Assembly (NCBI GenBank): GCA_965284645.1
Contig: OZ260106.1
Coordinates: 2,815,747 to 2,879,746 of the forward strand
DNA: 64,000 bases
DNA from: an uncultured Bacteroidia bacterium
Lineage (GTDB): Bacteria; Bacteroidota; Bacteroidia; JAIBAJ01
Direction of reading: 5' to 3'
Under the pieces are notes generated by a model. It saw only the letters and a program-made list of their open reading frames with translations, was not told the DNA's origin and made no database searches. The position numbers and the translations under genes were made by a program. Below, in pieces: positions 5,801-64,000 of this stretch (the first letter of the stretch is position 1; each line of letters starts with the position of its first letter).

Positions 5801-6152
5801 AATAAAAATGTGGCGGGCCCTTTTCGCCCAAAACCATTAGCACTTTATATTAGCTGAACTGCCAGGCGAAAAGGCCGGGCTATTCGCTGCAAATCCTCGC
5901 GCCTTTCGCTTACGCTCAGGCCGCTGTGGGTTTTCCGCTGCTATCCCTGCCCGGAAACAGCGTGCGGATACTTGGGTTTTAGTGGTTTAAACCCAGATTT
6001 TGCATTAGAAATCCATAAACGATTAACCCGTTGTAAATCAATTTGTATGGCCCAATTGATAAAAACTGCTATCCCGAAATTTCTTTGGGAGGGTAAACCC
6101 AACTAAATCAAGTAGTTCGGATTAATAATTCCTCCTATTGATTTGGGTTAAA
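5801..6152. repeat. Mosaic interspersed repeat locus 1: module B (minus, 5801-5957) + module A (plus, 5987-6152)
   Basis: B core ...GGCGAAAAGGCCGGGCTATTCGCTGCAAATCCTC...CTGTGGGTTTTCCGCTGCTATCCCTGCCCGG is the reverse complement of the B copy at 44352-44485. A copy begins TTAAACCCAGATTTTGCATTAGAAAT and ends ATTGATTTGGGTTAAA. Confidence 0.85.
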
Positions 6153-6432
6153 TGGAGAGATGATGAAAGTGGTTATATAACTGTTTTGTGGAAGAAAGAA
6201 GAAGGAAATAGGAGATGATAAACTTATTTTGGAGTTCCAAATAGCTCACCTAAATATACCTATTGGGGTATAAAGAAATGGTATTTTATTTTTTCTTTGG
6301 GAAGTATTTGGAAATTACCTACTCCTATTTTTGAAGGCAGATTTGGTAAAAAGAAATTTAATGGCAACTAGATGTAATTTAGAGGTCATTGAAAGACGAC
6401 TCACATAAATCACAATTAATGACATAGAATTA

Positions 6433-7002
6433 ATGCAAGACTTTATTGACCAAGCAAATAAAAATGGTGTAACACTTCTCGACAAAGGAAGGTGTCAATT
6501 TTGTGGTGCAGACTATCAAAAGGGCATTTTTGAATGTATGGACAATTATAACCATGGACTTCAATTTTTGGACTTTGTTAATCCAGAACATCAAATTTCA
6601 AGGTTTTTAAGCGTAGATGCTCATGCTTTACAACACCCAGAAATTCACGGACGGTGGAGCAATCATTTTCATTTAACAAGACTGAACATAATTCTTGACA
6701 AAAACCAAACTTGGGACTACAAAAAATCACCAATACTCAGTGACTATTTGAACGCATACAAACTAAATAGACCGAATGAGTTTCTTTCCATCCCGAAACC
6801 ATTAGAAAGAGGAAAAATAACAGCAAAAGAGTTGATTAAGGCGACATCAGCAGACGAATGTGTTGCACTAATAAAAAACTGGGCGGACGAAGTATATCAT
6901 TCATGGAGTTCAAGTTATTCAATAGTTTCTCAAATTGCAGACGGTTTTTTAGACAACATTTACAATGGAAAAACACATGACAGTAAAACAACGAACCGCT
7001 AA
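6433..7002 (+). CDS. Hypothetical protein (Cys-rich N-terminus, CxxC...C, no recognised family)
   Basis: 189-aa ORF in the AT-rich islet. GRCQFCGADYQKGIFEC suggests a small metal-binding knuckle. No family recognised from sequence. Confidence 0.45.
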   Translation: MQDFIDQANKNGVTLLDKGRCQFCGADYQKGIFECMDNYNHGLQFLDFVNPEHQISRFLSVDAHALQHPEIHGRWSNHFHLTRLNIILDKNQTWDYKKSPILSDYLNAYKLNRPNEFLSIPKPLERGKITAKELIKATSADECVALIKNWADEVYHSWSSSYSIVSQIADGFLDNIYNGKTHDSKTTNR

Positions 7003-7133
7003 CAAAGGGCAAGCTCAGAGTACGTCACAAACTGCAGGAAACGAACATAAAAACTGAAGACAACATTCAATCCCTTCAAAAACAAAAAGACCATCAAATC
7101 TTTAAAAGCAAAAAATAGCTACCAAGGAATATT

Positions 7134-7523
7134 CTATTTGCTTTTCAATTTTTGTTTATTTAATTTATAATCGACACCCCACTTTGCCATAGTTTGTATA
7201 ACTGGCGACAAAGTAAGACCAAACTCCGTTAGGTTATATTCTACTTTGGGTGGTATTTCTGCATAAATTTTTCTACTAATAATTCCATCATCTTCTAATT
7301 CTCTTAACTGTTGTGTAAGCATAGATTGAGTGATGCCCACTACACTGCGTTTCAATTCACCAAACCTTGCAGGGGCTGTATGGTAGATTGCGTTGATAAG
7401 AATAGGCTTCCATTTTCCACCTAAAACCTTCATCGTTGCAGTTACTGGACAATTATTCTCATCAAAAATAAAAGTTTTTTTAGTTTCAATTAACTGATTA
7501 TCAATATTAGTATTTTTATTCAT
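7134..7523 (-). CDS. HxlR-family winged-helix transcriptional regulator
   Basis: Canonical HxlR core CPVTATMKVLGGKWKPILINAIYHTAPARFGELKRSVVGITQSMLTQQLRELEDDGIISRKIY. Divergent from a YciI-like gene. Confidence 0.85.
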   Translation of the reverse strand: MNKNTNIDNQLIETKKTFIFDENNCPVTATMKVLGGKWKPILINAIYHTAPARFGELKRSVVGITQSMLTQQLRELEDDGIISRKIYAEIPPKVEYNLTEFGLTLSPVIQTMAKWGVDYKLNKQKLKSK

Positions 7524-7617
7524 ACTTACTTTGCTTTAATGTCCTACTTGTTGAATTTAAAATAACATTGTTTTTTTGCACTACAAATATAAATAGAACA
7601 ACTTAAAAACAAACAAA

Positions 7618-7959
7618 ATGGAAAAATTCATTCTTATTTTTAGAGGTGGTAATACGCATATTTCCACTGCTAATTCACAAGCCGCAATGGACATAATTAA
7701 AACTTGGGACAATTGGATGCAAGGACTTGCCGAAAAAGGAATTCTTGCTGGAGGCGATGCTCTGCAAGTATCAGGCAAGAATGTGAAAAGTTCAAAAAAA
7801 GTAGTTTCAGATGGTCCATATGCTGACGGAAATGAAATGGTTGGTGGCTACTTAATAGTAAATGCAAAAAACATTGAAGCAGCTGTTGAAATTTCAAAAG
7901 GTTGTCCGATTTTAAGTGAAGAAGGAAGCGTTGAAGTTCGCCCAATTCAATTAAGATAA
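7618..7959 (+). CDS. YciI-like (DGPF domain) small protein
   Basis: 113 aa. ...GGYLIVNAKNIEAAVEISKGCPIL...VEVRPI matches the YCII-related fold family. Classic divergent partner of HxlR regulators. Confidence 0.75.
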   Translation: MEKFILIFRGGNTHISTANSQAAMDIIKTWDNWMQGLAEKGILAGGDALQVSGKNVKSSKKVVSDGPYADGNEMVGGYLIVNAKNIEAAVEISKGCPILSEEGSVEVRPIQLR

Positions 7960-8011
7960 ATACAAAGTATGGAGTATTCTTCAGCGTATTAAGACATCAA
8001 CAAAACTATTG

Positions 8012-8341: not shown

Positions 8342-8359
8342 ATTTAAAAAGTCATAACC

Positions 8360-8968
8360 TTGCAAAGTATTGAAAAGCAAATAGAAAAGGTCATTAAAAG
8401 CAAACCAAGAGGTTCATTGGTGTTACCTGCTGATTTTTTGCTCTATGGAACATCAAAGGCTGTTCAAAAATCATTAGAACGCTTGGAAGAAAAGCAAGTG
8501 ATTGTTCGAGTAGCGCATGGTATTTATGTACGTCCAAAAATAAGTAAGCTAATTGGGCCACTTACCCCCTCAGCGGAAGAAGTTGCGGAGGCTATTGCCA
8601 AGCGAGACAGGATACGCACTGTACCTACAGGTAGTTATGCTTTGAATGCATTAGGGTTGAGTACTCAAGTGCCGATGAATATTGTGCTACTTACTGATGG
8701 TTCACCTCGAGAAATAAAAGTAGGCAAACGAACCATAAAATTTAAGAAAACCACACCTAAAAACCTGTTGGCAAAAGGCAAAATAAGTCGCTTGGTAATT
8801 CAAGCCCTTAAAGAGATAGGCAATGGGAAAGTAACAGAAGATGAAGAAATAAAAATATTGGATATACTTAAAAAGGAAAACGAAAAAAAACTAAAAAACG
8901 ACATTGCTCTTACACCTGTGTGGATTCAAAAAATAATGAATAAAGCATTGATCATTGGCAAAGATTGA
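8360..8968 (+). CDS. AbiEi-family type IV toxin-antitoxin antitoxin / transcriptional regulator
   Basis: TTG start. About 200 aa with an N-terminal winged-HTH-like segment (GSLVLPADFLLYGTSKAVQKSLERLEEKQVIVRVAHGIYV). Sits immediately upstream of, and overlapping, an AbiEii nucleotidyltransferase gene. Confidence 0.7.
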   Translation: MQSIEKQIEKVIKSKPRGSLVLPADFLLYGTSKAVQKSLERLEEKQVIVRVAHGIYVRPKISKLIGPLTPSAEEVAEAIAKRDRIRTVPTGSYALNALGLSTQVPMNIVLLTDGSPREIKVGKRTIKFKKTTPKNLLAKGKISRLVIQALKEIGNGKVTEDEEIKILDILKKENEKKLKNDIALTPVWIQKIMNKALIIGKD

Positions 8969-9998
8969 TTTTTACCAAATAGATAAGGCCGAAAAAGCAG
9001 CCATCTTTACAGAGATTGCTACCCAAAAGGGAATGAATCCTTTTGCAGTAGAGAAAGACTGGTGGGTAAGCCGAACCTTAGAAATTATCTTTCAAATGCC
9101 CATTGCAGAGCATTTAGTTTTTAAAGGCGGTACATCATTAAGTAAGGCGTGGAAACTCATCAATCGATTTTCAGAAGATATTGATTTAGCTATTGATAAG
9201 GAGTATTTTGGATTTAAGGGAGAGTTAGGAAAGAATCAAAGAGATAAACTCAGAAAAACAGCAGGTGCTTATACTACCGGAACTTTCTTTGAAGAGTTAA
9301 AGAAGAGCTTTGAAGGGAAAGGATTTAAGGATTTAAAATTTGTAGTGATTGAAGCCAAAGACAGCGACCAAGATCCAAGAGTATTAGAGATTTACTATCC
9401 CAACATCATCAAAGCGAAATCAGAATATCTCTTACCAAGAGTGCAGATTGAAGTTAGTTGCCGTTCTTTAAGAGAACCCTTTACTGCAAAGTCTTTTGGG
9501 GCATTGGTAGATGAATTTTATCCTGATAAAAATTTTGCTGAAAAGCTATTTGAAGTTCCAACCGTAAATGCAGAGCGTACATTTTTGGAAAAAATATTCT
9601 TGTTACATGAAGAATTTCAGCGTCCGATTGAAAAAATGCGAGTAGACAGATTAAGCCGCCATTTGTACGATGTTTATCAATTGGCAAAAGCAGGAATTGC
9701 TGAAAAAGCAATCAACGATAAAGAACTTTACGAAACCATTGTAGCACATAGATACAAATTTTCAAGAGTTGGCGAAGTGGATTATAACAAACATAACCCT
9801 AAAACAATAAATCCTATTCCCAAAGAAATAGTAATTGCAGATTGGGAAGAAGATTACACCAAAATGAAAGAAGCTATGATATACGGTGAGAACAAGCCAA
9901 GTTTTAAGGATTTGATAATCAATTTAATGGAATTAATTGAACAACTGCAAGTCGTTGAATGGCCTTTTCAACTTGAATTTCCTATTCCTAATTCTTAA
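8955..9998 (+). CDS. AbiEii/AbiGii-family nucleotidyltransferase toxin (DUF1814)
   Basis: Diagnostic motifs EKDWWVSRTLE ... LVFKGGTSLSKAWKLINRFSEDIDLAID (GS-x10-DxD nucleotidyltransferase). 14-bp overlap with the upstream antitoxin gene. Confidence 0.85.
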   Translation: MAKIDFYQIDKAEKAAIFTEIATQKGMNPFAVEKDWWVSRTLEIIFQMPIAEHLVFKGGTSLSKAWKLINRFSEDIDLAIDKEYFGFKGELGKNQRDKLRKTAGAYTTGTFFEELKKSFEGKGFKDLKFVVIEAKDSDQDPRVLEIYYPNIIKAKSEYLLPRVQIEVSCRSLREPFTAKSFGALVDEFYPDKNFAEKLFEVPTVNAERTFLEKIFLLHEEFQRPIEKMRVDRLSRHLYDVYQLAKAGIAEKAINDKELYETIVAHRYKFSRVGEVDYNKHNPKTINPIPKEIVIADWEEDYTKMKEAMIYGENKPSFKDLIINLMELIEQLQVVEWPFQLEFPIPNS

Positions 9999-10086: not shown

Positions 10087-10428
10087 TTAACCCTGATTGC
10101 GCATTAGCATTTCATAAACGAATAATCAGTTGTAAATCAACTTGTTTATCCAAATTGATAACCACAATTATCCCGAAATTTCTTCGAGAGGGAAAAACCC
10201 ACTAAAACAAGTAGTTTGAATTAATAATCCTCCAATGGATTAATTTTGGTTAAAGCACCCCGGGCAACGATAGGAACGGAAAGCCCACAGGCCAGACGTA
10301 GCGCTAGCGAAGACTGGCCGAGGACTTGCAGTGGATAGCGTGGCCCTACCGCCCATGCAGCAAACTAAAGTTCCAGGTAGACTGCGGTATTGGCGGTAGG
10401 GAGCCCGCCTAAAAAGAAAAAATGAGAA
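10087..10428. repeat. Mosaic repeat locus 2: module A (plus, 10087-10255) + module B (plus, 10256-10428)
   Basis: A: TTAACCCTGATTGCGCATTAGCATTTCATAAACG...TTAATTTTGGTTAAAG. B: CCCGGGCAACGATAGGAACGGAAAGCCCACAGG-[GGCCAGACGTAGCGCTAGCGAAGACTGGCC hairpin]-GAGGACTTGCAGTGGATAGCGTGGCCC...GGCGGTAGGGAGCCCGCC-A-rich tail. Confidence 0.85.
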
Positions 10429-11146: not shown

Positions 11147-11162
11147 TCCTTTGGGGGAGGAA

Positions 11163-17528: not shown

Positions 17529-18269
17529 ATGAAAAAATTAGGATTAGTTTTGGTTTTAGCTGTTTTTCAGTCAGTTGCAGGGATAGCCCAGGTTGTGCCA
17601 GCGGGACGGTTGTTGTACGAGAACAGCTTGAAGGCCAAGGCGGATACTCTGGGATGGAAACTGGAAGGCAAGGCCGAAGTTGAATTTTTAAACGATTGGA
17701 TGCATGTGTATTCGCCAAATCAGGCCCAACATCATGTGTTTTGGTGTCCGGTTTCGTTTCCTAGTGATTTTATAGCTGAATGGGACGTACAAAACCAAGA
17801 TCCAAAAGCAGGTTTATGTATTGTATTCTTTGCAGCCGAAGGGGAAAAAGAAGCCGATATCTTTTCGCCAAAACTCAAAACTCGAACCGGTGTTTTTAAG
17901 CAATATACCAAGGGCGATATCAACAACTACCACATTTCTTATTATGCCAATAATCCGAACGAAAAAGGCCGGACCAATGCCAATTTGCGGAAAAACAGCG
18001 GGTTCAAAAAGGTACAATCCTTAACCGAAGGAATACCTAAAAATGACACCTTGGTGCACCGTTGCCAATTGGTTAAGCGCAAAGGACGAATTTTATTTTA
18101 TGTAGATACCAAAAAAGTAATCGATTGGCAAGATGGCCAAGCTTGGGGTGGAGGACGAATAGGGTTTAGGCAAATGAAATGGACCCATTTTGCGTATCGA
18201 AACTTTAAGGTTTGGGAAGCCGGAGAAGTGGTGATTCCAGAAATACCGGTAGGCGCGAGGAAAAACTAA
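17529..18269 (+). CDS. Hypothetical secreted protein (possible concanavalin/LamG-like jelly-roll, DUF1080/DUF1961-like)
   Basis: Signal peptide MKKLGLVLVLAVFQSVAGIAQ (internal Met start preferred over 17484). The C-terminal GGRIGFRQ...FAYRNFKVWE pattern resembles laminin-G-like hydrolase folds. Weak. Confidence 0.4.
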   Translation: MKKLGLVLVLAVFQSVAGIAQVVPAGRLLYENSLKAKADTLGWKLEGKAEVEFLNDWMHVYSPNQAQHHVFWCPVSFPSDFIAEWDVQNQDPKAGLCIVFFAAEGEKEADIFSPKLKTRTGVFKQYTKGDINNYHISYYANNPNEKGRTNANLRKNSGFKKVQSLTEGIPKNDTLVHRCQLVKRKGRILFYVDTKKVIDWQDGQAWGGGRIGFRQMKWTHFAYRNFKVWEAGEVVIPEIPVGARKN

Positions 18270-18275
18270 ATCAAA

Positions 18276-18968
18276 TTGAAACACATGGGAACTTGGCATA
18301 CCAAAATTGACGGAAATGATACCTTTCAGGATATTTACCAAGGATTTTATCAGTTGTACAACCAAGGTGCGAGTCCGCAGCAGGCTTCAGCTCAGATAAA
18401 GGCCGATTTTGTTGCTTATTGGATGGATGAAGAGGATAGGAACAATGCTTTATTTGCTTTGGTTTTAGCCCAATGGGAAACCAAATGCTTGGAAAAGGAA
18501 TTGCTTGCTGAAGTTAAGGACATACTTTCCACCGGAAAAGATTTGGAAGTTTGGAAGGCATTGGGCGCCAGCGTTGAACAGTTGGAAGAAAGAAAGCTGG
18601 AATTGGCTAGTTTTTGGAAGAAGGTTTCGGTGGAGAGAGAAAAGCCGAAACGTAGGATTAGGCCCAAATGGGAATTTGCACTCAGACTGCGGTTGAGCTT
18701 AGTCTCACCCGATGGAAAAAAGGTGTTGGAGGTGAACGATGAAATTGTAAACCATCATTATACCTGCACCAGTGCGTTGTTGAACTGGGAGAGAGGAGGA
18801 GGCGGTGTGTTTAATTATATCGGTGAGGGAAAAGATTTGAAAGCCCAATGGTTGGATGCCCAAACCTTGGAAATTCATCATGAAAAAGGCTTAGAATTCC
18901 ATCAGAAGAACCCAAGTTTGTACTTTTTTGGAGAGGAAGTTAGGATAGTTTACAAGGAGCTTAGGTAG
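18276..18968 (+). CDS. Hypothetical protein
   Basis: 230-aa ORF, no signal peptide, no recognised domain. Same strand and tightly packed with the two upstream hypotheticals. Confidence 0.4.
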   Translation: MKHMGTWHTKIDGNDTFQDIYQGFYQLYNQGASPQQASAQIKADFVAYWMDEEDRNNALFALVLAQWETKCLEKELLAEVKDILSTGKDLEVWKALGASVEQLEERKLELASFWKKVSVEREKPKRRIRPKWEFALRLRLSLVSPDGKKVLEVNDEIVNHHYTCTSALLNWERGGGGVFNYIGEGKDLKAQWLDAQTLEIHHEKGLEFHQKNPSLYFFGEEVRIVYKELR

Positions 18969-19066
18969 GAAGATTTGAACCTTGGTCTCTAAGGTGTTTT
19001 GTTGGTAAAAAGGCTAAATTGTTGAATGGTAATAATTGCATCCAAGCTTAAAGTCTGTGCTTCTTT

Positions 19067-19213
19067 CCGGGTAGGGATAGGAACGGAAAGCCCACAGGGA
19101 TGCGGAGGAACGGAGCAGACCGAGGACTTGCAGTGTATAGCCCGACCATGAGCCATGCACCAAAGTTTAAAACAAAGGAGAATGTGAAAAGGCGAATGGG
19201 ACCCGCCAAATAA
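19067..19213 (+). repeat. Mosaic repeat locus 3: solitary module B (plus)
   Basis: CCGGGTAGGGATAGGAACGGAAAGCCCACAGGG...CGAGGACTTGCAGTGTATAGCCCGACC...GGCGAATGGGACCCGCCAAATAAG. Confidence 0.8.
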
Positions 19214-19340
19214 GTATTAAAATTATATTCTTTAAGGGTTGAGGAAGGAGCCAAGGTTTCGATTTTATTCAAGCAAATTTGTTTATAAATTCAGGGCTAG
19301 GAACCCTGTTTGAAATGGGATAACTCTTTAATTTTACGGC

Positions 19341-21191
19341 ATGGCAGAAGAAGAAGAAGTTAAATACGACGAAGGCAATATTAGAACCCTCGATTGGAAA
19401 GAACATATCCGATTGAGGGCTGGCATGTATATCGGTAAATTGGGTGATGGTTCGAGTACCGACGATGGAATTTATATTCTTATCAAAGAGGTGATTGACA
19501 ATGCCATCGATGAATTTGTGATGGGAAATGGTCGTACTGTAGAAATTACCGTGAAAGATAAGCGTGTGAAAGTAAGGGATTACGGTAGGGGGATACCGCT
19601 TGGAAAGGTGATTGATTGTGTGAGTAAGATTAATACCGGGGGGAAATACGATAGTTTGGCTTTTAAGAAATCGGTGGGACTGAATGGAGTTGGTACCAAA
19701 GCTGTGAATGCTCTTAGTTCGTATTTTAGGGTACAAAGTATACGCGACGACAAGACCAAGGTGGCAGAATTTAACCAAGGAAACATCGTTGTGGATGCGC
19801 CGGTAGAAGAATGCAACTTGCGCAAAGGTACCATAGTGACTTTCGAGCCGGATGACACAATTTTCCACAATTTCCACTTCATTCACCAGTACATCGAAAA
19901 AATGTGCTGGAATTATTGCTACCTCAATCCCGGGTTGACCATTTACCTTAATGGGGAAAAAATATATTCGGAAAATGGATTGAAAGACCTGTTGCAAAAC
20001 AATATTTCCGAAGAAATACTCTATCCGATAATTCATTTGCGGGGGAACGATATTGAAGTAGCCCTCACGCATGGGAATAGCTACGGGGAAGAATACTATA
20101 GCTTTGTTAATGGACAGTTTACCACCCAAGGCGGTACCCACCAATCTGCTTTCAGGGAGGAAATTGCCAAGGTGATTCGGAATTTCTATAAAAAGGATTT
20201 TGAAACCACCGATATCCGCACCAGTATTATTGCTGCGGTGAGTGTGAAAGTAATGGAACCGGTTTTTGAAAGCCAAACCAAAACCAAACTAGGTTCGGCT
20301 GTGATTGCACCGGATGGACCTTCGTTGAAATCGTTTATTGGCGATTTTCTTTCCAAGGAATTGGACAATTACCTGCATAAAAACCAGGAAACGGCCGATG
20401 CTTTGCTCCGTAAAATCCTCCAAAGCGAAAGGGAAAGAAAAGATATGGCCGGCATTAAAAAACTGGCCAAAGAAAGAGCTAAAAAAGCCAGTCTGCACAA
20501 CCGCAAACTCAGGGATTGTAGGTTGCATTTTAACACAACCGATGAAAGAAGGCTGGAAACAACCCTTTTCATAACCGAGGGTGACAGTGCGAGTGGATCC
20601 ATTACCAAAAGTAGGGATGTGAATACCCAAGCGGTTTTTAGCTTGAAAGGTAAACCGCTGAACTGCTATGGCATGACCAAAAAAGTGGTGTATGAAAACG
20701 AGGAATTCAATCTTTTGCAAGCGGCTTTGAACATTGAAGAATCGCTGGAAGACCTACGTTACAACAATATTGTAATAGCCACCGATGCCGATAACGATGG
20801 TATGCATATTCGATTGTTGATGATTACCTTCTTTTTACAGTTTTTTCCTGATTTGGTGAAGAACGGACATTTGTTCATTCTCCAAACGCCCTTGTTTAGG
20901 GTGAGAAACAAGAAGGAAACCCGTTATTGCTATTCGGAAGAGGAAAAACTATCGGCCATTGAAGCCTTGGGACCTAGGCCAGAGATTACTCGATTTAAAG
21001 GTTTGGGAGAAATTTCGCCTGACGAGTTCAAGCATTTTATTGGAAAAGATATCCGTCTCGACCCTGTTATTATTGGGAAAGACTCCCATATCAGCCAGTT
21101 GTTGAACTATTACATGGGAAGTAATACACCGGATCGGCAAATGTTTATTATTGAAAATCTGCGGGTCGAAGCCGATTTAGTGGAAAATTAG
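19341..21191 (+). CDS. parE: Type IIA topoisomerase subunit B, most likely topoisomerase IV ParE (616 aa, no GyrB insert)
   Basis: GHKL ATPase motifs ([23 protein letters not shown]), TOPRIM ([20 protein letters not shown]). Length and absence of a C-terminal GyrB insertion favour ParE. Confidence 0.75.
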
Positions 21192-21206: not shown

Positions 21207-21698
21207 ATGAGGAAGGTGGTACGATACCTGTTTTTATTCTTGCTTAGTGCTGGGGCGCTTGCTTCGTGCAAGAAAACGGAATACGTTTATCAAATCGAAA
21301 ACGAAAACCTGTATGCCGATAATGCGGGCAAGGTAAAGGTGAAATCGGACGAACAATTTGTATCGATTCTGTATGCCAACCTTTTTCAAGAAGCACTGGG
21401 GGCCAACGAATTGGTGAGAGTGGTTCGTTGTATCCGAGCCAATGGTGATAAGGACTTGATCCACGAAGTACTGGTTTCTAATTTCATGAACCGTCCGGAT
21501 GTGCAATTGCCCGAAGCGGAATTTATGCGTTCCAATCCTGATTCATTTGTGGTAGAAACCTACAAACGTTTTTTGGTTCGGTATCCAACTGAAGCCGAGA
21601 AAACCTGGTTTAGGAATTATATCAATACCCATCCGACCGTTACACCTGAAATCGTTTACTCTTCCTTCGCTATTAGCAACGAATACCAATTTTACTAG
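21207..21698 (+). CDS. Hypothetical lipoprotein
   Basis: Lipobox LSAGALASC. First of four same-strand secreted-protein genes with 3-10 bp gaps. Confidence 0.45.
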   Translation: MRKVVRYLFLFLLSAGALASCKKTEYVYQIENENLYADNAGKVKVKSDEQFVSILYANLFQEALGANELVRVVRCIRANGDKDLIHEVLVSNFMNRPDVQLPEAEFMRSNPDSFVVETYKRFLVRYPTEAEKTWFRNYINTHPTVTPEIVYSSFAISNEYQFY

Positions 21699-21701
21699 GT
21701 T

Positions 21702-23039
21702 ATGCAAAGACGTTCCTTTATAAAGAAAGCCGCCACCGCCACAGCTGGTGCTTTTGCATTGCCTTATATTTTGCCGAGTGGTCGATTGTTTGCCTCTACC
21801 CAAGCTCCTTTAGCTCAGCATGTTATTTTAATCATGTTTGCCGGTGGTGTTCGGCAACAGGAAAGTGTATTGCAACGTTATTTGGACGATAGCCAAGGCA
21901 TGGGAATTCCGGGCAACATCATGTACAATATGTTCAATGGTGCCCCTCCAACAGCGAAGATTGTTTACGGTACCGATGGTTTTATTGCTGGTGATACACC
22001 CATACCTTCCTTGTTAAACCAAAGTTTACAAAGCCAAGGAACTTTGTTTTCTGAACTTCGCTCTGGCACTACAGGACACTACAACGGTTTAAATGCAATT
22101 GTTCAGGGAAATACCCTTTATACCCAAGGTTTGAAACAAAAACCAATTCATCCTACCATATTTGAATATGCCCGTCGCCATGGAAATTTTCCTGCATCGA
22201 AGGTGTGGTTTGTAGGCAATGGCATTGGAAATTCTACGCCTTTATTGAATTACAGTACCCATCCCGATTATGGTGCGGCTTATGGTGCTAATTTTTTGGC
22301 TCCAACCATTGTTTTTGGAAATGAAGGGTTAACCTATATGTCTAACAGCAAGGTTTACCATCCAGAAGAGGAATTGGGACCGATGTACGAAATGAAGTAT
22401 TTCCTGGATAAGAATTTTAAAAATGCTGCCGGAACCTTGGAAGGTATTCACAACACCGACGAAGAGAAGCAAAACATCAAGGAGTTCTTCAAAGAAATGT
22501 ACCAAAAATCTCAGGATGGTACCATTGCCTTTCCGCCGGTAGTAGACAATGGCGATTTGAAAACCATCGGTTATGCCTGCGAGGTAGCCAAATGGTTTAA
22601 GCCGAATGTATTAGCTATCAATATGAGTGCTGTAGATGGATGCCATAGCAATTTTACTGGTTATTTAAGGTCCTTGCACAGGGCTGATCATGCGGTGGGA
22701 CATATTTGGAACTATATTCAAACCCAGGTACCGGAAATGGCGGGCAATACTGCTATTATCTTGGCACCGGAATGTGGCCGAAACCTAAACCACAACCCCA
22801 TCTTGGACGAAAACGATTGGTATGCCTTCGATCACAGCGACCAAAACTCTTTGCGGGTTTTCGGAATGATGGCCGGCCCCTCCATTCCATCCAATTTAAC
22901 CGTTGGAAGCAATGTTCAACCTGTTGGAAATACGGTGGATATTGTTCCTACCATGGCTGAAATTTTAGGATTTAAAAACGAGGTGGTTTCTTCCGGACTA
23001 TTGGCTGGAGATTCCATGAGCTGGTTTGATCGATTGTAA
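21702..23039 (+). CDS. Tat-signal sulfatase-fold protein, DUF1501-like
   Basis: Twin-arginine-like N-terminus MQRRSFIKKAATATAGAFALP followed by HVILIMFAGGVRQQES (resembles the DUF1501 VIxLFxxGGxSxxD block). C-terminal D-H-containing blocks. Confidence 0.4.
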   Translation: MQRRSFIKKAATATAGAFALPYILPSGRLFASTQAPLAQHVILIMFAGGVRQQESVLQRYLDDSQGMGIPGNIMYNMFNGAPPTAKIVYGTDGFIAGDTPIPSLLNQSLQSQGTLFSELRSGTTGHYNGLNAIVQGNTLYTQGLKQKPIHPTIFEYARRHGNFPASKVWFVGNGIGNSTPLLNYSTHPDYGAAYGANFLAPTIVFGNEGLTYMSNSKVYHPEEELGPMYEMKYFLDKNFKNAAGTLEGIHNTDEEKQNIKEFFKEMYQKSQDGTIAFPPVVDNGDLKTIGYACEVAKWFKPNVLAINMSAVDGCHSNFTGYLRSLHRADHAVGHIWNYIQTQVPEMAGNTAIILAPECGRNLNHNPILDENDWYAFDHSDQNSLRVFGMMAGPSIPSNLTVGSNVQPVGNTVDIVPTMAEILGFKNEVVSSGLLAGDSMSWFDRL

Positions 23040-24532: not shown

Positions 24533-25606
24533 ATGAAAACAAAATCCTTAAAGTACTGGATGGTTATGCAAGGACCCATTATTGCTATCATTTCCTTTGT
24601 CGGACATGGTGCGCTTGCTTGGTTGTTGCCCATGTATGCCTTTGTTTTGATTCCAATCGCCGAACTGTTTTTGCCGGCTACAACCGAGAATATGTCGGAG
24701 GCTGAAGAAGAAATTGCCTTGGCCGATCCTTGGTACGATTGGGCCGTTTACCTCATGGTACCGATTCAATACGGTTTGCTGGCCTTTTATCTGTACACCA
24801 TTTGTTACACTGAAAACACCCTGTTTGAATTGGTCGGAAAAACATTTTCTATGGGTATAGGGTGTGGAATTTTAGGTATCAATTTGGGACATGAATTGGG
24901 GCACCGGATTAAGCCTTCCGAGCGATTTATGGCAAAAGCTTTGTTGCTCACTTCCATGTATATGCATTTCTTTATCGAGCATAACCGTGGTCACCATAAA
25001 AACGTGGCAACGCCTTTAGATCCAGCCACTTCTCGTTATGGCGAGATTGTTTATTTCTTTTGGTTTCGTTCCATTATCAACAGTTGGTTTTCGGCTTGGG
25101 AACTGGAGGTGAAGCGTTTAAAAAAGGATAATCAGCCCATACTTTCGCTGAGCAATGAAATGATTCGCTACATCCTTATTCAATTCAGTTTTTGCGCCTT
25201 CATTTTTGCCATATTCGGTTTAAAAGGATTGCTGGGCTTTTTGTCAGTTGCCTTTATTGGAATTTTACTTTTAGAAACGGTCAACTATATTGAGCACTAC
25301 GGTTTGACCCGCAAGAAAAGTCAAGGTGAAGCCTACGAGCGTGTTTTACCTGTTCACAGCTGGAATTCCAACCATGTCATCGGCCGTTTATTGCTTTTTG
25401 AATTGTCACGTCACAGCGATCATCACTATAAGGCGAGTCGTAAATACCAGATTTTGAGGCATTTCGAAGATAGTCCACAAATGCCTACCGGTTATCCGGG
25501 TATGATTGTTTTGGCCTTGGTTCCGCCTTTGTGGTTTTACGTGATGCACCGCAACATTGCCAAGTACAGCCAATTGCATCCAGAAGCGGTTAAAGCTTGG
25601 GCTTAA
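24533..25606 (+). CDS. AlkB-like integral-membrane alkane 1-monooxygenase / fatty-acid desaturase-family di-iron hydroxylase
   Basis: All four His boxes of the AlkB/XylM family: HELGHR, EHNRGHH, NYIEHYGL, HSDHH. Multiple TM helices. Confidence 0.8.
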   Translation: MKTKSLKYWMVMQGPIIAIISFVGHGALAWLLPMYAFVLIPIAELFLPATTENMSEAEEEIALADPWYDWAVYLMVPIQYGLLAFYLYTICYTENTLFELVGKTFSMGIGCGILGINLGHELGHRIKPSERFMAKALLLTSMYMHFFIEHNRGHHKNVATPLDPATSRYGEIVYFFWFRSIINSWFSAWELEVKRLKKDNQPILSLSNEMIRYILIQFSFCAFIFAIFGLKGLLGFLSVAFIGILLLETVNYIEHYGLTRKKSQGEAYERVLPVHSWNSNHVIGRLLLFELSRHSDHHYKASRKYQILRHFEDSPQMPTGYPGMIVLALVPPLWFYVMHRNIAKYSQLHPEAVKAWA

Positions 25607-25607: not shown

Positions 25608-25764
25608 TTTTTTATTTTTTGGCGGGCACCATTCGCAAAAACAGGTTCGTCATTAAATTAAAATTTGGCAAGGCGAATGGTCGGGCTATACGCTGCAAGT
25701 CCTCGTCCAGTCTACGTTTCACTTCGTCTGTCCTGTGGGCTTTACGCTTCTATCCCTTCCCGGA
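25608..25764 (-). repeat. Mosaic repeat locus 4: solitary module B (minus)
   Basis: TTTTTTATTTTTGGCGGGCACCATTCGC...GGCGAATGGTCGGGCTATACGCTGCAAGTCCTCG...CCTGTGGGCTTTACGCTTCTATCCCTTCCCGG. Confidence 0.8.
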
Positions 25765-25839
25765 GCCTCCGAAATAGTTTTGGCAAATAGAACAAGCATT
25801 TGCTTTTCACTCAGTGTGGTAAAAAAATAAAGTAAGAAT

Positions 25840-30036: not shown

Positions 30037-30648
30037 ATGTATATTCCTAAACAATTTTCTATGCCCGAAGGCGATGTGCTGGACTTTATTCGATCCAATC
30101 CATTCGGAATTTTAGTAACAGCAGCAGCAGATGGCATAAAGGCTACGCACATACCATTTCATGTAAAGGAAACAAACAATTCTTGGGTGCTTTGGGCCCA
30201 TTTAGCGGGTGCTAATCCACATGCTTCTTGCTTGTTGGAAAAGGAACATTTAGCTATATTTTCAGGTGTACACGCTTACGTTTCCTCTTCTTGGTACAAA
30301 AATGTAAATGTTTCTACCTGGAATTACGAGGCCGTGCATGTTACAGGAACTATCCAATTGCTTTCTGAATCAGAATTGTTGGAGGCGCTAAACGAACTAA
30401 CCAATTCCTATGAGCATGGACAAGAGTCGCCGCTCACATTAGACAAAATTCCAACAAAAATGGTTTCTGCTTATTTGAAGGAAATTGTAGGCTTCGCATT
30501 TCATCCCCAAAAGGTAGAAGCAAAGGCAAAGCTCAGCCAAAACCGCAACCGGCAGGATCATGCTTCCATTGTTTCTCACCTTGAAAAACAAGTTGACCCC
30601 TTAGCTCAAGAAGTGGCCAAAAAAATGAAGAAGAACCGACTAGGCTAG
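30037..30648 (+). CDS. paiB: PaiB-family FMN-binding negative transcriptional regulator
   Basis: MYIPKQFSMPEGDVLDFIRSNPFGILVT N-terminus typical of PaiB/YwhH-like proteins. 203 aa. Confidence 0.7.
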   Translation: MYIPKQFSMPEGDVLDFIRSNPFGILVTAAADGIKATHIPFHVKETNNSWVLWAHLAGANPHASCLLEKEHLAIFSGVHAYVSSSWYKNVNVSTWNYEAVHVTGTIQLLSESELLEALNELTNSYEHGQESPLTLDKIPTKMVSAYLKEIVGFAFHPQKVEAKAKLSQNRNRQDHASIVSHLEKQVDPLAQEVAKKMKKNRLG

Positions 30649-37177: not shown

Positions 37178-37249
37178 GAAAACTTTGGCAAGTTTATGAA
37201 TTTTTCGCTAAATTGTTATTTTAATCGTCGAACGACCTGAAATTATCCA

Positions 37250-37706: not shown

Positions 37707-37820
37707 AAGGGTTAAAGTCTCGTTTAAGCATCGGGGTACAATTTGGATTTGCATTCAAAATTTCCATAATCCAGCCTTGGGTATCGAATCGGGAGGGGAA
37801 AAGTTTACCTTTGTCCTGCA

Positions 37821-40890: not shown

Positions 40891-41392
40891 GCCACAAAAA
40901 TAAGAGGCTTACCGGCAATCTGCTAATAATTTTATTGGACCGCTATAAAATTGTCATTTCCTTGAAAAACAGTCTTTTGGAAATTTTCATTTTCCTTAGT
41001 GTGGACAATGAATTGGAAAAGTTGAACTTGAAATATGTTTCAATTTGTTCCTAGCGTTGGGAAGAGGGAAGTTGAAAACTTAAGCGAAGGTCCTGAAAAT
41101 TAAATTTCAATCCCGTTTAGGCTTTAGAAAAAGTGTAATGTTTTGAATTGGAATTTAAATAATGATTTCAGGGTTTAGTCTGTATAGCTGAATTATAAAT
41201 TATAGAATAGGATATGGGAATGGATTCATTTGAGGTGAAGCGGTGCGGTTTGTCTTTTCTAACACGTCTAGATTTCGCCCGTCTGGTGCGCAAGGTGATT
41301 GCTAGTTGTATTTAAATCTATGCCCCTGCTGCAACTAAAGGTGCTAAGAAAGTTAAGTTATTTCAGGTTTATTTTACTCTCAAATTTATCCA

Positions 41393-41545
41393 TGGGAGGA
41401 TTTATTAATCCGATTGGTCTGATATAGCTGGGTTGCATCTTTTGGAGTATTTTGGGATAGCAGTTGGGTTTCATAAAGACATACAGATTGCAAAACAACT
41501 GGACCATTGTTAAAGCCTTAGAAATACGTAACCTGGGTTCAAAAA
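41393..41545 (-). repeat. Mosaic repeat locus 6: degenerate module A (minus) in the 5' leader region of the cysteine desulfurase gene
   Basis: GGGAGGATTTATTAATCCGA...GGGATAGCAGTTGGG...ACAACTGG...CCTTAGAAATACGTAACCTGGGTT aligns with block-wise identity to A(-) at 43972-44150. Confidence 0.55.
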
Positions 41546-41605
41546 CCTTTGCAAATTGGAACATGATTCTTATTATGAAAAATAAATTTACAAATCCTTC
41601 TACCT

Positions 41606-42776: not shown

Positions 42777-43619
42777 ATGATTGTCAGTGAAAACGGTGTG
42801 CTTTGTCCGGCCACCAGTGTACGTTTCGGAATTACCAACCGATCCTTTCGCTACGGCGATGGTTGTTTTGAGTCCATTCGTTTGGTAAATGGGAAGGCAC
42901 CTTTTTTAAAATACCATTTCAATCGCCTTAGCGAAACCACCGATGTGTTAAAGTTGGAATTGCCAGCCAGTTTCACCCACGATTATTTCGAAAAGCAGAT
43001 CCAGGCTTTAGCAGAGGCCAATAATTTAGCGGAGGGCGGCTACATTCGTCTTACCGTTTTTAGGCACGACGGTGGTTTTTACCTGCCGGGAGCCAACAAT
43101 GCCTCTTTTGTGATGGAGGCTTATTCTTTGGACCACAATCATTTTCAGTGCAATACCAATGGGTTGACGCTTGGATTGTTTCAAGAAATTCCCAAGCCCA
43201 AGGGTTTATTGGCCAATTTTAAAACCAACAATTCCTTGGTTTATGTGTTGGCTTCCATTTATTGCAAAGAGCATGGCTTAGACGATTGTTTGTTGGTAAA
43301 CGAGGACGGAAACATAGTTGAATCAACCAATTCCAATGTATTTATGCTGCTTGATGGCGAAATTATAACACCTCCTTTGTCCGAGGGCTGTTTAGGTGGG
43401 GTGGCACGTAAGGTATTGCTCGATTTGTTGCAGGAAAAGGGGGAGGATGTTTACGAGCGGGCCATTTCCGTAGAGCAAGCCATGAGGGCGGAGGAAATAA
43501 TCGTTACCAATGCCGTTCGCGGTCCCCGTTGGACCCAAGGACTTGGTCAGGGCCAAATGAATCGCACCCAGCAATGGAATCGTTGGTTAAATGAAAGGGT
43601 AGGGGTGAAGGTAGGGTAA
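42777..43619 (+). CDS. Class IV aminotransferase family protein (aminodeoxychorismate lyase PabC-like / BCAT-like)
   Basis: 280 aa. FRYGDGCFESIR, the catalytic-Lys region and ExTxSNVF-type block (VESTNSNVFML) typical of PLP fold-type IV. Confidence 0.7.
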   Translation: MIVSENGVLCPATSVRFGITNRSFRYGDGCFESIRLVNGKAPFLKYHFNRLSETTDVLKLELPASFTHDYFEKQIQALAEANNLAEGGYIRLTVFRHDGGFYLPGANNASFVMEAYSLDHNHFQCNTNGLTLGLFQEIPKPKGLLANFKTNNSLVYVLASIYCKEHGLDDCLLVNEDGNIVESTNSNVFMLLDGEIITPPLSEGCLGGVARKVLLDLLQEKGEDVYERAISVEQAMRAEEIIVTNAVRGPRWTQGLGQGQMNRTQQWNRWLNERVGVKVG

Positions 43620-43635
43620 GTTGCTGGATGCTATC

Positions 43636-44560
43636 CATTTCTATTTTCTATTTTCTATTTTCTAATTTCTCATTTTTTCCCCAATTTTTAATTTTTAATT
43701 CGCTAATTTTTAATTTATTAGGCGGGCTCCCTTTCGCCCAAATACAGCTTTTTCCTTTGAAACAATTTATTCTGCTAGGGCTCAAGGGCCACGCTATCGC
43801 CCATACTCCTCGGTCTGCTCCGTTCCTCCGCAGCCCTGTGGGGTATTTGGCTCTATCGTTGCCCGGACCCTTGCCTAAGTTTTGGTGGGTGGAAAAAAGT
43901 TTTGGAGCTGCTTGGGCTGGGGTGATTTTGGGGGCAGAGCCAGTAAGTGAATTTACCGAAAAATACTTCTTAAACCCAAATTAATCAATAGGAGGATTTA
44001 TTAATCCGAACTACTTGATTTAGTTGGGTTTACCCCTCCCGAAGAAATTTCGGGATAGCAGTTGTTATCAATTTGGCCATACAAATGGATTTACAACTGG
44101 TTAATCGTTTATGCATTTCTAATGCGTAATCTGGGTTAAACCCAAATTCAGCATTAGAAATCTATTACAGCTTCCAACTGCTTCAAATACAAGGATTTCA
44201 GAACAATTTTTGACTTCAAAATAGTTTACTATTCCTTCACCCAAAAATTAACCTGAAACCCTCGTCTTTATTGCATTTGAAAGCTTCATTTCGATTTCTA
44301 ATGCGTAATCTGGGTTTAAACCACCAAAACCCAAGTACCAGCACGCACTTTCCGGGCAGGGATAGCAGCGGAAAACCCACAGCGGCCTGAGCGTAAGCGA
44401 AAGGCGCGAGGATTTGCAGCGAATAGCCCGACCTGAACGCCACTTGCACCATGCTTGGACTCAGGGAAAAGTTTTTGTGGCGGAAGGGCACGCATAAGTA
44501 ATTAAAAATTAGGGAATTAAAAATTAAGAATTAGAAAAGAGAAGAGAGAAAAGAGTTTCT
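43636..44560. repeat. Mosaic repeat locus 7: ~0.9-kb imperfect palindromic assembly bounded by ~70-bp AT-rich inverted repeats (IR-L, B-, A-, A fragments, B+, IR-R)
   Basis: IR-L, 43636-43712: tandem heptamers CTATTTT x3-4, then TAATTTTTAATTCGCTAATTTTTAATTTATTA. B(-) at 43712-43870 and A(-) at 43972-44150. A-terminus fragments at 44157-44172 and 44294-44322. B(+) at 44352-44485. IR-R, 44490-44560: AATTAAAAATTAGGGAATTAAAAATTAAGAATTAGAAAAGAGAAGAGAG is the reverse-complement counterpart of IR-L. Confidence 0.8.
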
Positions 44561-44566
44561 CTGGAA

Positions 44567-53580: not shown

Positions 53581-53620
53581 TTAACCCAGATTACGCATTA
53601 GATCTGCATAAACGATTCCT
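53581..53620 (+). repeat. Mosaic repeat locus 8: 5' fragment of module A
   Basis: TTAACCCAGATTACGCATTAGATCTGCATAAACGATTCC matches the left terminus of module A and then diverges. Confidence 0.6.
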
Positions 53621-57530: not shown

Positions 57531-57680
57531 GAGGGAAGGTTATTGTTGTATAGGATGATTATTTTGCGAGCTCCTTTTTGTCTTTGGTTAACAGCCATAC
57601 TTCCGAATTAGGGCTAGGTAAAAGGGGCAGCTTTAAGAATCCAAATACTGGAACCTCTTACGCTTTAATGGTGAGAATAA

Positions 57681-57830
57681 GCATTAGATATCCTTTAGAA
57701 CTTAACCTTTTGTAAATCAATTTGTTTTGTCAAATTGACTTACAAATGCTATCCTGAAATGCTCGAGGAGGTGTCCAGCTAAATCAAGTAATTCAGATTA
57801 AAAGTCCTCCTTTTGATTAAATTGAGTTTA
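57681..57830 (+). repeat. Mosaic repeat locus 9: module A (plus), left terminus missing
   Basis: GCATTAGATATCCTTTAGAACTTAACCTTTTGTAAATCAATTTGTTTTGTCAAATTGA...AAATCAAGTAATTCAGATTAAAAGTCCTCCTTTTGATTAAATTGAGTTTAAAGG. Confidence 0.7.
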
Positions 57831-62084: not shown

Positions 62085-62125
62085 ATCTTTGTAAGAATAG
62101 AACTTACTTTTCCGAATTCAACAAC

Positions 62126-62161
62126 ATGGCTGGTTTCAAATGGATTCCAGCCATTTTTTTT
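62126..62161 (+). terminator. Rho-independent terminator after ORF 59919-62084
   Basis: ATGGCTGG / CCAGCCAT 8-bp stem, 13-nt loop, followed by TTTTTTTTT. Confidence 0.65.
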
Positions 62162-62286
62162 AATCCATTCTGGTGGTACTGACCTTGGTTTTCTAAGTAA
62201 TCAGTTTAAAATTCCATTATTTAATCTGTAATTTGAATTTTACCTATTTTTCTTTTGGTTGAAAAACCATTTATTAATCGGAATTG

Positions 62287-62556
62287 CATTTCTAATGACT
62301 CATTTGGGTGATTTCAAACTGCTTATTTTTTTATTTGGCGGGCTCCATTTTGCCCAAAACATTTGCCTAAATTTTAAGCAGTCTACCAGGCAAAATGGCC
62401 ACGCTTTCGGCGGTAGTCCTCGGTCTGTGAAGGGCTAGGCCATTAATACTTTCTTAGGGTTTAACCAAATAAATTACCTGACTGCTTTTAATAGAAAATA
62501 GGCCTAGCCCTTCACATCCCTGTGGGCTACACTGCCTCTATCGTTGCCCGAGACCC
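62287..62556 (-). repeat. Mosaic repeat locus 10: A-terminus fragment (62287-62310) + module B (minus, 62323-62556) with expanded central hairpin
   Basis: TTTTTTTATTTGGCGGGCTCCATTTTGCCC...GTCCTCGGTCT-[GTGAAGGGCTAGGCC ... 59 nt ... GGCCTAGCCCTTCAC]-ATCCCTGTGGGCTACACTGCCTCTATCGTTGCCCG. A 15-bp perfect inverted repeat replaces the short variable hairpin of the other B copies. Confidence 0.8.
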
Positions 62557-62588
62557 TTCGAACCTTAGTTTTGTCTAAAACCTACATC

Positions 62589-63467
62589 CTATCGAGGCAT
62601 ATACTTGTTGTGGTCGTCTTCTTCGAATGGCTTAACTTGTTGAACTGGCTTCTCCACTTGTTTTGAAAAGAAAGGTGTAGGCGCTTGTCCTTCAAACCCT
62701 TGGTTATGCAATGCTTTAATGCGTTTACTCAAGTGAGGATGGGTTGAAACCTTCTCCGAAAACCAAGTCCAGAATCCACCGATTTGGTCATATTGGTTAG
62801 CATACACCTTGGCATTTACCTGTTTGAATAATTTGTTTCCGGCAGCCAAAACCAACAATCCTGAAGGCGCACCCTGTGGACTTAAGGCTGATCCAATATT
62901 GTCGCAAGTGTATTCACAAGCTCTGCTGTAAGCTGAATTCAAAAAAGGAACTAAAATAGAAGGCAAGGTCAGCAATTGCTTTAAAATATGGTTGCGCTTG
63001 ATATGACCTAATTCATGACCAATCACAAAATCTAAGGTCTCCGGATGGTTCTCAAGGGCTTCATCGGCAATATTCGAATACAGTACTATGTAGTTAACTC
63101 CCATAAACTTAGTGGCAAAGGCATTCAAAACGCCTCCGGCCTGCATAATATAAACATCGGGTGTTTGCTTCAAACCCAAGGCCTGGCTTTGGCGTGTAAC
63201 AGCTTCAAATATCCTTGGAAATTGATCATAACCCACTTTCACAGCATTGCCTCTGATATAGCCCACCATTACTCCCATTTGTATGAAAAGAATCAACACA
63301 ATGACTATCAAATAACTGATTCCAAAAAGGGCATAAGGTTGATTACTAGTAAGACTATTCATTATGGAGAAAACAATAAAGGCATACCCCAACAAGGCTG
63401 CAATGATTTTAATTCCGAAATAGATATTTTCCTTCGAATGAACCTTATAGGTAATGTTAGCTTCCAT
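62589..63467 (-). CDS. M48-family zinc metalloprotease (HtpX-like), membrane-anchored
   Basis: HExxH motif GHELGHIKRNH. Two N-terminal TM helices. Confidence 0.75.
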   Translation of the reverse strand: MEANITYKVHSKENIYFGIKIIAALLGYAFIVFSIMNSLTSNQPYALFGISYLIVIVLILFIQMGVMVGYIRGNAVKVGYDQFPRIFEAVTRQSQALGLKQTPDVYIMQAGGVLNAFATKFMGVNYIVLYSNIADEALENHPETLDFVIGHELGHIKRNHILKQLLTLPSILVPFLNSAYSRACEYTCDNIGSALSPQGAPSGLLVLAAGNKLFKQVNAKVYANQYDQIGGFWTWFSEKVSTHPHLSKRIKALHNQGFEGQAPTPFFSKQVEKPVQQVKPFEEDDHNKYMPR

Positions 63468-63653
63468 GTCGTATTTTGGACGAAAATAGTAGAAAAAAAA
63501 TAATACCGAATAGACATTATGTATAGTCCAATAGTAGGCTTACATTTTCTAGAAAAGATTTGACTATCAAACTGTATCCCCGGCATTTACCATTCTAATT
63601 TTACAAATATCCTTAGGACGATTTTTAAATTAAAAATGGTATAAAAGGTTTAT

Positions 63654-64000
63654 TTAACCCAGATTACGCATTAGAAATGCATAAACGATTAACCAGTTGT
63701 AAATCAATTTTTATAGCCAAATTGATAACAACTGCTATCCCAAAATTCCTTAGGGAGGGGTAAACCCAACTAAATCAAGTAGTTCGGATTAATAAATCCT
63801 CCTATTGATTAATTTGGGTTTAATGGCAAAATGGTTTTGCTGGCACTTCACTTCCCGGGCAGGGATAGCAGTGGAAAGCCCACAGGACCGCCGTGACCCG
63901 AACCCTTTCGGGTTACAGCGGGGCGAGGACTTGGAACGGATAGCCCGGTGCTTTCGCCCCTTGCTAAAGCCAAGATTAATAGCAAAAAGGTTTTGGGCGA
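63654..64000 (+). repeat. Mosaic repeat locus 11: module A (plus, 63654-63824) + module B (plus, 63854-window end, truncated by window)
   Basis: A: TTAACCCAGATTACGCATTAGAAATGCATAAACGATTAACCAGTTGTAAATCAATT...TTGATTAATTTGGGTTTAATGG. B: CCCGGGCAGGGATAGCAGTGGAAAGCCCACAGG-[CCGCCGTGACCCGAACCCTTTCGGGTTACAGCGGGG nested hairpin]-GAGGACTTGGAACGGATAGCCCGG... Confidence 0.85.

Follow-up and report, generated by a model that had tools for sequence, protein, structure and literature searches.

Some insertion sequences (IS), namely IS1397, ISKpn1 and some members of IS110, target the repetitive extragenic palindromes (REPs). ISEcp1 belongs to the IS1380 family and makes 5-bp duplications at its targets (PMC2887853). 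Flavo-1 (Rfam RF01705; Weinberg et al. 2010) has been filed for 15 years as a candidate small RNA (sRNA). Comparison with these systems provides insights into the intergenic repeats of a 64,000-nt stretch of DNA from an uncultured Bacteroidia bacterium (assembly GCA_965284645.1, contig OZ260106.1, positions 2,815,747 to 2,879,746), which we call the window and whose own numbering is used throughout. Two repeat modules recur in it. Module A is a MITE (miniature inverted-repeat transposable element), to whose family the palindromic element C also belongs, and module B is a divergent, extended member of Flavo-1, a family that the Rfam model describes only in part. We consider it quite probable that the two are independent families of selfish or neutral repeats (A and C as MITEs of the IS1380 clade, B as an extended, REP-like Flavo-1) that accumulated in the same permissive spacers.

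Module A has the ends CCCAGATTACGCATTAGAAAT...GGG, and its insertion sites carry a 5-bp target duplication with the consensus TTNAA. The original prediction, made from the letters alone, had noted "TTAA-like" sequence at its flanks; that sequence is present, and in the four young copies with perfect duplications it proves to be a 5-bp target duplication (TTAAA, ATAAA, TTAAA and TTTAA). The MITEs are non-coding and measure 156-174 bp, with inverted ends of 25 nt in element C (22 of 25 positions matching) and of about 10-11 nt in module A, whose coordinates we run from CCC to GGG. The prediction had also proposed a MITE/BIME-like system (BIME, bacterial interspersed mosaic element). Module A is indeed a true non-autonomous element with terminal inverted repeats (TIRs), that is, a MITE; the alternation with defined linkers that marks a BIME is not seen.

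The module A end is by no means confined to the window. We scanned one genome per species with a left-end pattern and matched at least 108 stretches, almost all from Bacteroidota and a few from other phyla. The matches listed include Flavobacterium, Algoriphagus, Chitinophaga, Saprospiraceae, Pedobacter and Cyclobacteriaceae, and many of them lie at contig ends, as expected for repeats. The interior of module A was found in 16 of the at least 108 loci listed; the remainder have only the 21-25-nt ends around different interiors. Most of these elements, among the matches listed, are imperfect palindromes of considerable length, and the commonest element size is 167-179 bp. In 22 of 30 complete elements the two 5-nt flanks are the same, and the free central N agrees in 26 of 30. 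Near-identical copies stand on four contigs of a single Chitinophaga metagenome-assembled genome (MAG). Being present in many other genomes, the elements are dispersed, as predicted, and are no local duplication. A literature search found the end sequence CCCAGATTACGCATTAGAAAT in no paper, and the set is apparently uncatalogued and very widespread in Bacteroidota. Papers on the Cardinium MITE and on MITEs in viruses were consulted and have no relevance to module A.

The nearest sequence relative of the window repeats, among the matches listed, is a Sediminibacterium MAG (L028). The module A copy at 43975-44135 is ~98% identical to the copy in this MAG; aligned over 6446-6616 of the MAG contig and 43970-44140 of the window, the MITE is 98.2% identical. 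On the same contig, positions 154-1845 hold homologous genes collinear with those at 21270-22985 of the window, with a protein identity of only 36-70%. This disparity between element and genes suggests recent horizontal spread of the element, unless the collinear genes are paralogues. Only 6 end matches were found among 2.9 million viral contigs, so phage carriage is no major route. A syntenic spacer measures 185 nt in a distant relative (L111) and 716 nt in the window, where it contains module A; it offers no precise empty site.

Two further elements with these ends deserve description. One is a 2398-bp element (L106, ~1697-4094, minus strand) with the same inverted ends and a TTTAA duplication, which lacks a transposase and has three small open reading frames (ORFs; 163, 178 and 182 aa), the N-termini of two of which resemble signal peptides. 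It gives the impression of a MITE relative that is non-autonomous and carries cargo. The other is a 172-bp MITE with a TTTAA duplication in a Flavobacterium MAG (L051, 2503-2674), where an open reading frame continues beyond the element; this copy appears to lie inside or at the extreme end of a coding region.

The parentage of module A can be approached through its ends. The CC termini and the 5-bp duplication led us to consider IS1380 and to read the end of ISEcp1. The left end of ISEcp1, read directly in plasmid pEK499, is CCTAGATTCTACGTCAGTACTTC; this end (CCTAGATTCTACGT...) has 13 of 22 positions in common with the MITE end, including 7 of the first 8. The search of all loci gathered with the ISEcp1 transposase (tblastn) gave two informative matches, and the search of plasmids with the 34-nt end (blastn) gave matches that are nearly all due to chance, one of them (H3) being a real IS1380 end. 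Plasmid pACIB of Aliarcobacter cibarius (L238, 211792-214820) carries an IS1380-family gene in two halves, split by an IS5-family insertion. The halves match NCBIfam NF033539 (IS1380) at positions 1-197 and 210-416, and the ends of the element are CCCAGATTATGCAATAG and CCCGCATTATGCAATAG, with an ATAAA duplication on both sides. For the reconstructed transposase there are more than 4809 homologues, 429 aa long and with PF13701. Full copies of the IS (L239-L248, n = 10) measure 1458 bp with 84-nt untranslated ends; their left end is CCCAAATTATGCAATAGCGAAAT, their right end is CCCGGATTATGCAATAGAAATC, and their 5-bp duplications are TTTAA, ATTAT and ATAAA. The pACIB element is surrounded by a nest of other transposase genes.

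In Bacteroidota, a Flavobacteriales MAG contig (L050) brings transposase and end together. The opening 116 nt of the contig code for the C-terminal part of an IS1380-like transposase (...KKRRSWFDGLWNYAKIFEFPFVISNA*), which runs directly into ATTTCTAATGCGTAATCTGGG, followed by TTAAG; ATTTCTAATGCGTAATCTGGG is identical to the left end of module A over 21 nt. A second contig (L029) shows the same arrangement. The 38-aa C-terminus, padded with GK to 40 aa, gave no matches when searched. Judged from these sequences, the parent family of module A is IS1380. An IS1380-type DDE transposase, encoded elsewhere in the genome or formerly so, would recognize the 21-25-nt ends and insert the MITE at AT-rich TTNAA sites with duplication of 5 bp. 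The window is without a transposase, as predicted (tblastn with IS1380 transposases, E > 0.5; Pfam on 20 flanking and small ORFs), and from the lack of an IS1380 transposase in it we infer that the enzyme acts in trans on the window copies. No inward ORF or transposase is shared among the at least 108 end-pattern loci listed, because the pattern required GCATTAG and the autonomous elements have GCAATAG.

Several points weigh against this parentage. The full-length IS1380-family elements recovered come from Campylobacterota-like contigs, the evidence from Bacteroidota consists of two contig-end fragments (L050 and L029), and the lineage of the window itself yielded no autonomous copy. Two internal hairpins of module A are retained by compensatory changes across genera, and a bare transposase substrate would not need them. 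Finally, the outer flank positions that distinguish a 5-bp from a 3-bp duplication are informative in only ~12 copies, and 3 of these disagree (of CTAAA/TTAAA type). That disagreement, together with T-N-A being the best-documented matching part of the flank, is what an origin from an IS5/IS1031-type or IS982-type element would explain, with a 3-bp TNA duplication and ends ACCC...GGGT; IS982 ends start with AC, in a family often met among Bacteroidota (see also PMC9769881). We give such an origin hardly any probability. A non-T outermost base that matches on both sides (ATAAA, ATTAA, GTAAA) favors a 5-bp duplication and the termini CCC...GGG, and the right outer base agrees in this way with the left in L025, L036 and the window copy at 37254, and by eye in L026, L071, L072 and L083. 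The autonomous elements with the same ends, moreover, encode IS1380-family transposases and make 5-bp duplications such as ATTAT and ATAAA.

Module B had likewise been held to match no described family, a claim that neither module bears out: module A has the ends and the target duplication of the IS1380 family, and module B is Flavo-1. At its gathering thresholds Rfam returns no match in the window. Run in E-value mode, it matches Flavo-1 over the whole model (1-76) in 7 of the 9 module B copies, with 27.8-38.1 bits. The rows of the original Flavo-1 seed (GCGUGAGGGAUAGAAGCGG...ACAGCGGAUAGCCCGACC) have the same core as module B. Consensus folding (alifold) gives one Y shape, into which each window copy also folds alone: a closing stem P0 (CGGGC...GCCCG), the Flavo-1 hairpin with its invariant loops GAUAG.AGCGG / AGCG.AUAGCC, a second hairpin of ~60 nt, and a CCAAAUA tail. 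The module is a sharply bounded unit of 90-155 nt whose tail reads CC(C)AAAU. A copy at 62332-62554 departs from this plan by an expansion of its hairpin tip (window 62430-62510), closed by a perfect 10-bp stem GGGCTAGGCC/GGCCTAGCCC.

To describe the family from the window outward, we built a covariance model (R1) from seven window copies of module B only. R1 detects both held-out window copies, and in 100 metagenome loci chosen solely by the Flavo-1 core pattern it makes 110 full-length matches; in the subset compared (L117-L136), it recovers all 10 Rfam matches above the cut-off. This detection of Flavo-1 members by a window-only model, together with the full-model Rfam matches, establishes the membership of module B. 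In the 110-copy alignment, pairing holds in 95.7% of cells, against 73% in shuffled and 28-43% in slid partners, with 445 double changes. P0 varies freely in sequence (GCGUG/CACGC, GCAGC/GCUGC, GCAUU/AAUGC and others), and the second hairpin ranges from absent to ~60 nt. The point on the other side is that no window copy reaches the Flavo-1 gathering cut-off of 42 bits and two copies go unreported. The Rfam model reaches that cut-off for only about half of the core-pattern copies in L117-L136, so Flavo-1 is under-annotated outside Flavobacteria. Several contigs (L119, L123, L128, L194) have two or three Flavo-1 copies.

Relatives show module B in the same place with changing identity. Around the aminotransferase gene at 42777-43619, a B copy stands in the same place in relatives whose protein identity is 97% and 86%, in different subtypes, and relatives at 70% and 59% carry no B copy there. 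In a relative at 97% (L250, 927-1171), the copy next to this gene belongs with the 44349 subtype and not with the 43869 subtype. In the window, both of these B copies are followed at their 3' ends by low-complexity tails of 60-90 nt (TTCTATTTTCT...; regions 43620-43727 and 44488-44566), which are mutually inverted repeats. The inverted tails and the switch of subtype point to inversion or conversion between B copies.

Whether module B works as RNA or as DNA can be weighed from the alignment and the surroundings of its copies. Rfam labels Flavo-1 a structured non-coding RNA, which would be either a family of sRNA genes or a cis-acting element, with its structure selected as RNA; Weinberg et al. 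classed it as likely RNA with covariation. The nearly invariant, non-self-complementary loops and the strict polarity of the module are classic features of functional RNA, P0 and the two hairpins covary very strongly, and the architecture is kept across distant taxa. Yet wobble pairs are no commoner than A-C mismatches (18 G-T against 21 A-C in 2236 cells), with no strand asymmetry, so the helices look constrained equally on both strands. Among the Flavo-1 copies, no sequence is conserved upstream of -8, no Bacteroidota -7 box stands at a fixed distance, and no downstream T-run is conserved. Orientation relative to the adjacent genes is random, nine copies fall within 64 kb, and in the F. psychrophilum transcriptome Flavo-1 matches lie sense or antisense to transcripts, many of them outside transcripts (PMC9723704). 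The RNA explanation is therefore an unlikely one in our estimate. We lean, with a confidence just short of even, toward a REP-like repeat that acts at the level of DNA: module B would work as such a repeat and not as an independently transcribed sRNA gene, and its hairpins would be of consequence when the DNA is single-stranded, whether for spread, for recombination or for the binding of proteins. Against it stand the RNA-like loops and polarity just described, and the fact that module B has yielded neither an enzyme nor a target duplication nor a precise empty site. The module has no GT[AG]G/CGTC foot and is branched, which a REP is not. No Y1 (HUH) transposase lies in the window, and no protein recurs beside 121 Flavo-1 copies, a sampling that a single-copy gene would escape. 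Two other identifications were tried and rejected. Flavo-1 as an "atypical REP" of the Bacteroidetes RAYT subclass 2.6 (RAYT, REP-associated tyrosine transposase) fails as the listed REPs do not resemble it, a further count against REP kinship, and a retroelement like a short interspersed element (SINE), suggested by the A-rich tail, fails as the tail is not conserved and is pyrimidine-rich in L110.

The hairpins of both modules also invite another role, that of transcription terminators or insulators maintained at operon ends, as had been proposed. Repeats are present in five of the six convergent spacers, A and B are both rich in hairpins, and the internal hairpins of A are kept by compensatory change. 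Consensus scans, however, give terminator-like sites no more often than expected (11 against 11.8 expected, and 14 against 16.1), with only two weak ones touching a module, and scans for promoters showed no excess either. The tail of B is A-rich and not T-rich, the adjacent genes have hairpin-plus-T-run terminators of their own, separate from the modules, at 5713-5744 and 62130-62160, and copies also lie within the divergent promoter spacers 37178-37820 and 40891-41605. Neither module supplies canonical terminators, and maintenance for such a role seems improbable to us. More improbable still is that A and B form one composite modular mobile element, moved as a unit or shuffled by a single machinery, as the original prediction of a two-module mosaic had it. 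B is also present in six of the nine spacers with a TIR (hypergeometric P = 0.006), and the MITE is on the 5' side of B in all six intact pairs. The segments 5865-6013 and 44293-44441 are 93% alike across B, spacer and TIR, one TIR being that of A and the other that of C, and in L035 and L028 too the MITE adjoins a Flavo-1 unit. The bias of position and the co-occurrence hint at more than common tolerance and count against the independence of the two families. On the other side, the 5-bp duplications enclose A only, the A-B gap varies from 4 to 130 nt with A in either orientation, and solitary copies exist of both A (41379, 57669) and B (19064, 25616). None of 121 metagenomic Flavo-1 copies has a MITE TIR within 600 nt, and 695 kb of TIR-selected loci hold only 4 B-like matches. 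It is on the duplications around A alone, the variable gaps, the solitary copies and the 121 Flavo-1 loci without a TIR that the independence of the two families rests. Their adjacency is explained, on this view, by neither of them persisting outside gene-free spacers, and the MITE may locally prefer TTNAA sites on the 5' flank of B.

The inventory of repeats (Table 1) was obtained with nhmmer, seeded with one copy of each module; the coordinates of module B are those given by R1. Both modules recur where the original prediction had put them, with E-values far beyond chance (A, 1e-52 to 1e-13; B, 1e-50 to 1e-7). Its list was incomplete, having overlooked the densest cluster at 43716-44501 (in the order B-, A-, element C, B+), and element C with it. 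Among its supposed fragments of A, the one at 53581 is a fragment, and those at 41393 and 57681 are whole, diverged copies. The totals are seven full-length copies of module A, one element C, two end scraps and nine copies of module B. Together they come to 2.9 kb, which is 36% of the intergenic DNA and 4.5% of the window. Of the 27 spacers between genes that measure at least 40 nt, 11 carry a repeat, so that to say they bracket nearly every gene block was an overstatement. The 3' end of the B copy at 25616-25766 adjoins the stop codon of the gene at 24533-25606, and element C has a TTAAA flank in common with the adjoining copy of module A.

Table 1 Repeat copies in the window, with flanking pentanucleotides (left/right) and covariance-model scores
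Feature	Position	Strand	Length, flanks or scores	Basis or remark
Module A, MITE copy	5992-6147	+	156 bp; TTAAA/TTAAA	nhmmer and sequence
Module A, MITE copy	10091-10249	+	TTTAA/TTAAA	nhmmer; right end degenerate (TGG)
Module A, MITE copy, young	37254-37414	+	ATAAA/ATAAA	nhmmer, alignment
Module A, old, diverged, full-length	41379-41537	-	flanks no longer matching	nhmmer
Module A, MITE copy, young	43975-44135	-	TTAAA/TTAAA	nhmmer
Element C, palindromic MITE of the same family	44141-44314	undefined	174 bp; 25-nt inverted ends	
Module A, left-end fragment, solo	53582-53618	+	37 nt	nhmmer
Module A, old, diverged, full-length	57669-57826	+	TTTAA/TTTAA	nhmmer
Right-end TIR scrap, solo, degenerate	62287-62312	undefined		sequence
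Module A, MITE copy, young	63658-63818	+	TTTAA/TTTAA	nhmmer
Module B (Flavo-1-type)	5807-5957	-	R1 140.6 bits; Rfam Flavo-1 32.1 bits	
Module B (Flavo-1-type)	10257-10414	+	R1 140.3 bits; Rfam 29.6 bits	
Module B, solitary	19064-19212	+	R1 149.8 bits; Rfam 33.6 bits	
Module B, solitary	25616-25766	-	R1 152.4 bits; Rfam 30.1 bits	
Module B	37550-37698	+	R1 139.3 bits; Rfam 38.1 bits	
Module B	43716-43869	-		found by R1
Module B	44349-44501	+	R1 118.2 bits; Rfam 34.9 bits	
Module B, ~70-nt hairpin-1 tip expansion	62332-62554	-	R1 65.4 bits	outside R1 training set
Module B, truncated by window end	63852-64000	+	R1 78.3 bits; Rfam 27.8 bits	outside R1 training set

The genes between the repeats are ordinary housekeeping ones, and a sorting domain of the type IX secretion system (T9SS) assigns the window to Bacteroidota; the genome is probably one of Chitinophagaceae and Sediminibacterium-like. 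No tRNA gene lies in the 64-kb window, and an exact look-up of one window protein found no record. At 8360-9998, where the DNA is AT-rich (GC 0.34-0.35), the genes of a DUF6088 protein and of an AbiEii nucleotidyltransferase toxin share 14 nt and look like a type IV toxin-antitoxin or abortive-infection pair. A very long ORF (1869 aa) occupies 30645-36254 on the minus strand. The strongest GC skew of the window (+0.27) is at 18001-20000, and two long ORFs on opposite strands overlap at 19269-20276 (-) and 19341-21191 (+), of which we take the plus-strand ORF as the gene.

The motif of module B was already known, and module A joins a known kind of element; the reading of the window genes is unchanged by either. 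The Rfam model of Flavo-1 takes in only one part of a Y-shaped unit that is larger, and leaves much of the family undetected, and three observations, the lack of wobble pairs, of promoter and terminator, and of orientation bias, call the label "sRNA" into question. It is conceivable, though we would sooner doubt it, that Flavo-1 as a whole is a large branched REP-like DNA element of Bacteroidota, with helices that are Watson-Crick DNA hairpins, spread or maintained by some enzyme, and that in some genomes its 5' flank marks the zone where IS1380-type MITEs preferentially land. The assignment of widespread Bacteroidota MITEs to the parent IS1380 is of use in annotating repeats and in making sense of broken MAG assemblies. 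One conserved end of 21-25 nt serves many interiors, the 2.4-kb cargo element included.

Comparison with known systems places each module with its differences. With the IS1380 family (ISEcp1 and the 429-aa clade), module A shares ends of 21-25 nt that begin CC(C/T)A(G/A)ATT and a 5-bp duplication at AT-rich sites, within the 4-5 bp typical of this family. It differs in having no transposase, in its size (156-164 bp against 1458-1656 bp for the IS), in an interior unrelated to that of the IS, and in a right end that retains only ~10 nt of the repeat. Like the bacterial MITEs Correia/NEMIS, RUP and MITECca01 of Cardinium, it is short and non-coding, has TIRs and target duplications, and occurs in numerous intergenic copies with presumed trans-mobilization by the parental IS. 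That parent is IS1380 for module A, whereas RUP derives from IS630 and MITECca01 from IS982, and the end of module A, unlike theirs, is common to many interiors across the phylum and beyond. With Flavo-1, module B shares the core GGGAUAG.AGCGG ... AGCG.AUAGCCCGACC, a variable tip stem, restriction to Bacteroidota and many copies per genome; it differs in its scores (28-38 bits in the window against the cut-off of 42), in its second hairpin of ~60 nt, and in a closing stem P0 and CCAAAU tail that fall outside the 76-nt Rfam model. REP/BIME repeats and the REP doublets (REPINs) of RAYT (TnpA-REP) resemble module B in being very abundant, intergenic only, structured and present in either orientation, with subfamilies per genome, stems kept by compensatory change, and a role as landing areas for mobile elements. 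Module B lacks their GTAG/CGTC foot, is much larger, and is branched where they form a single hairpin; no cognate Y1 transposase was found for it, and it makes no inverted pairs except 43716/44349. A and B follow no regular spacing or orientation, in contrast with the regular inverted alternation and defined linkers of BIMEs. Finally, the IS that target REPs offer the same picture of a mobile element that recurrently adjoins a structured intergenic repeat. Here the insertion is beside the repeat and not inside it, and the association is missing at 121 random Flavo-1 loci.

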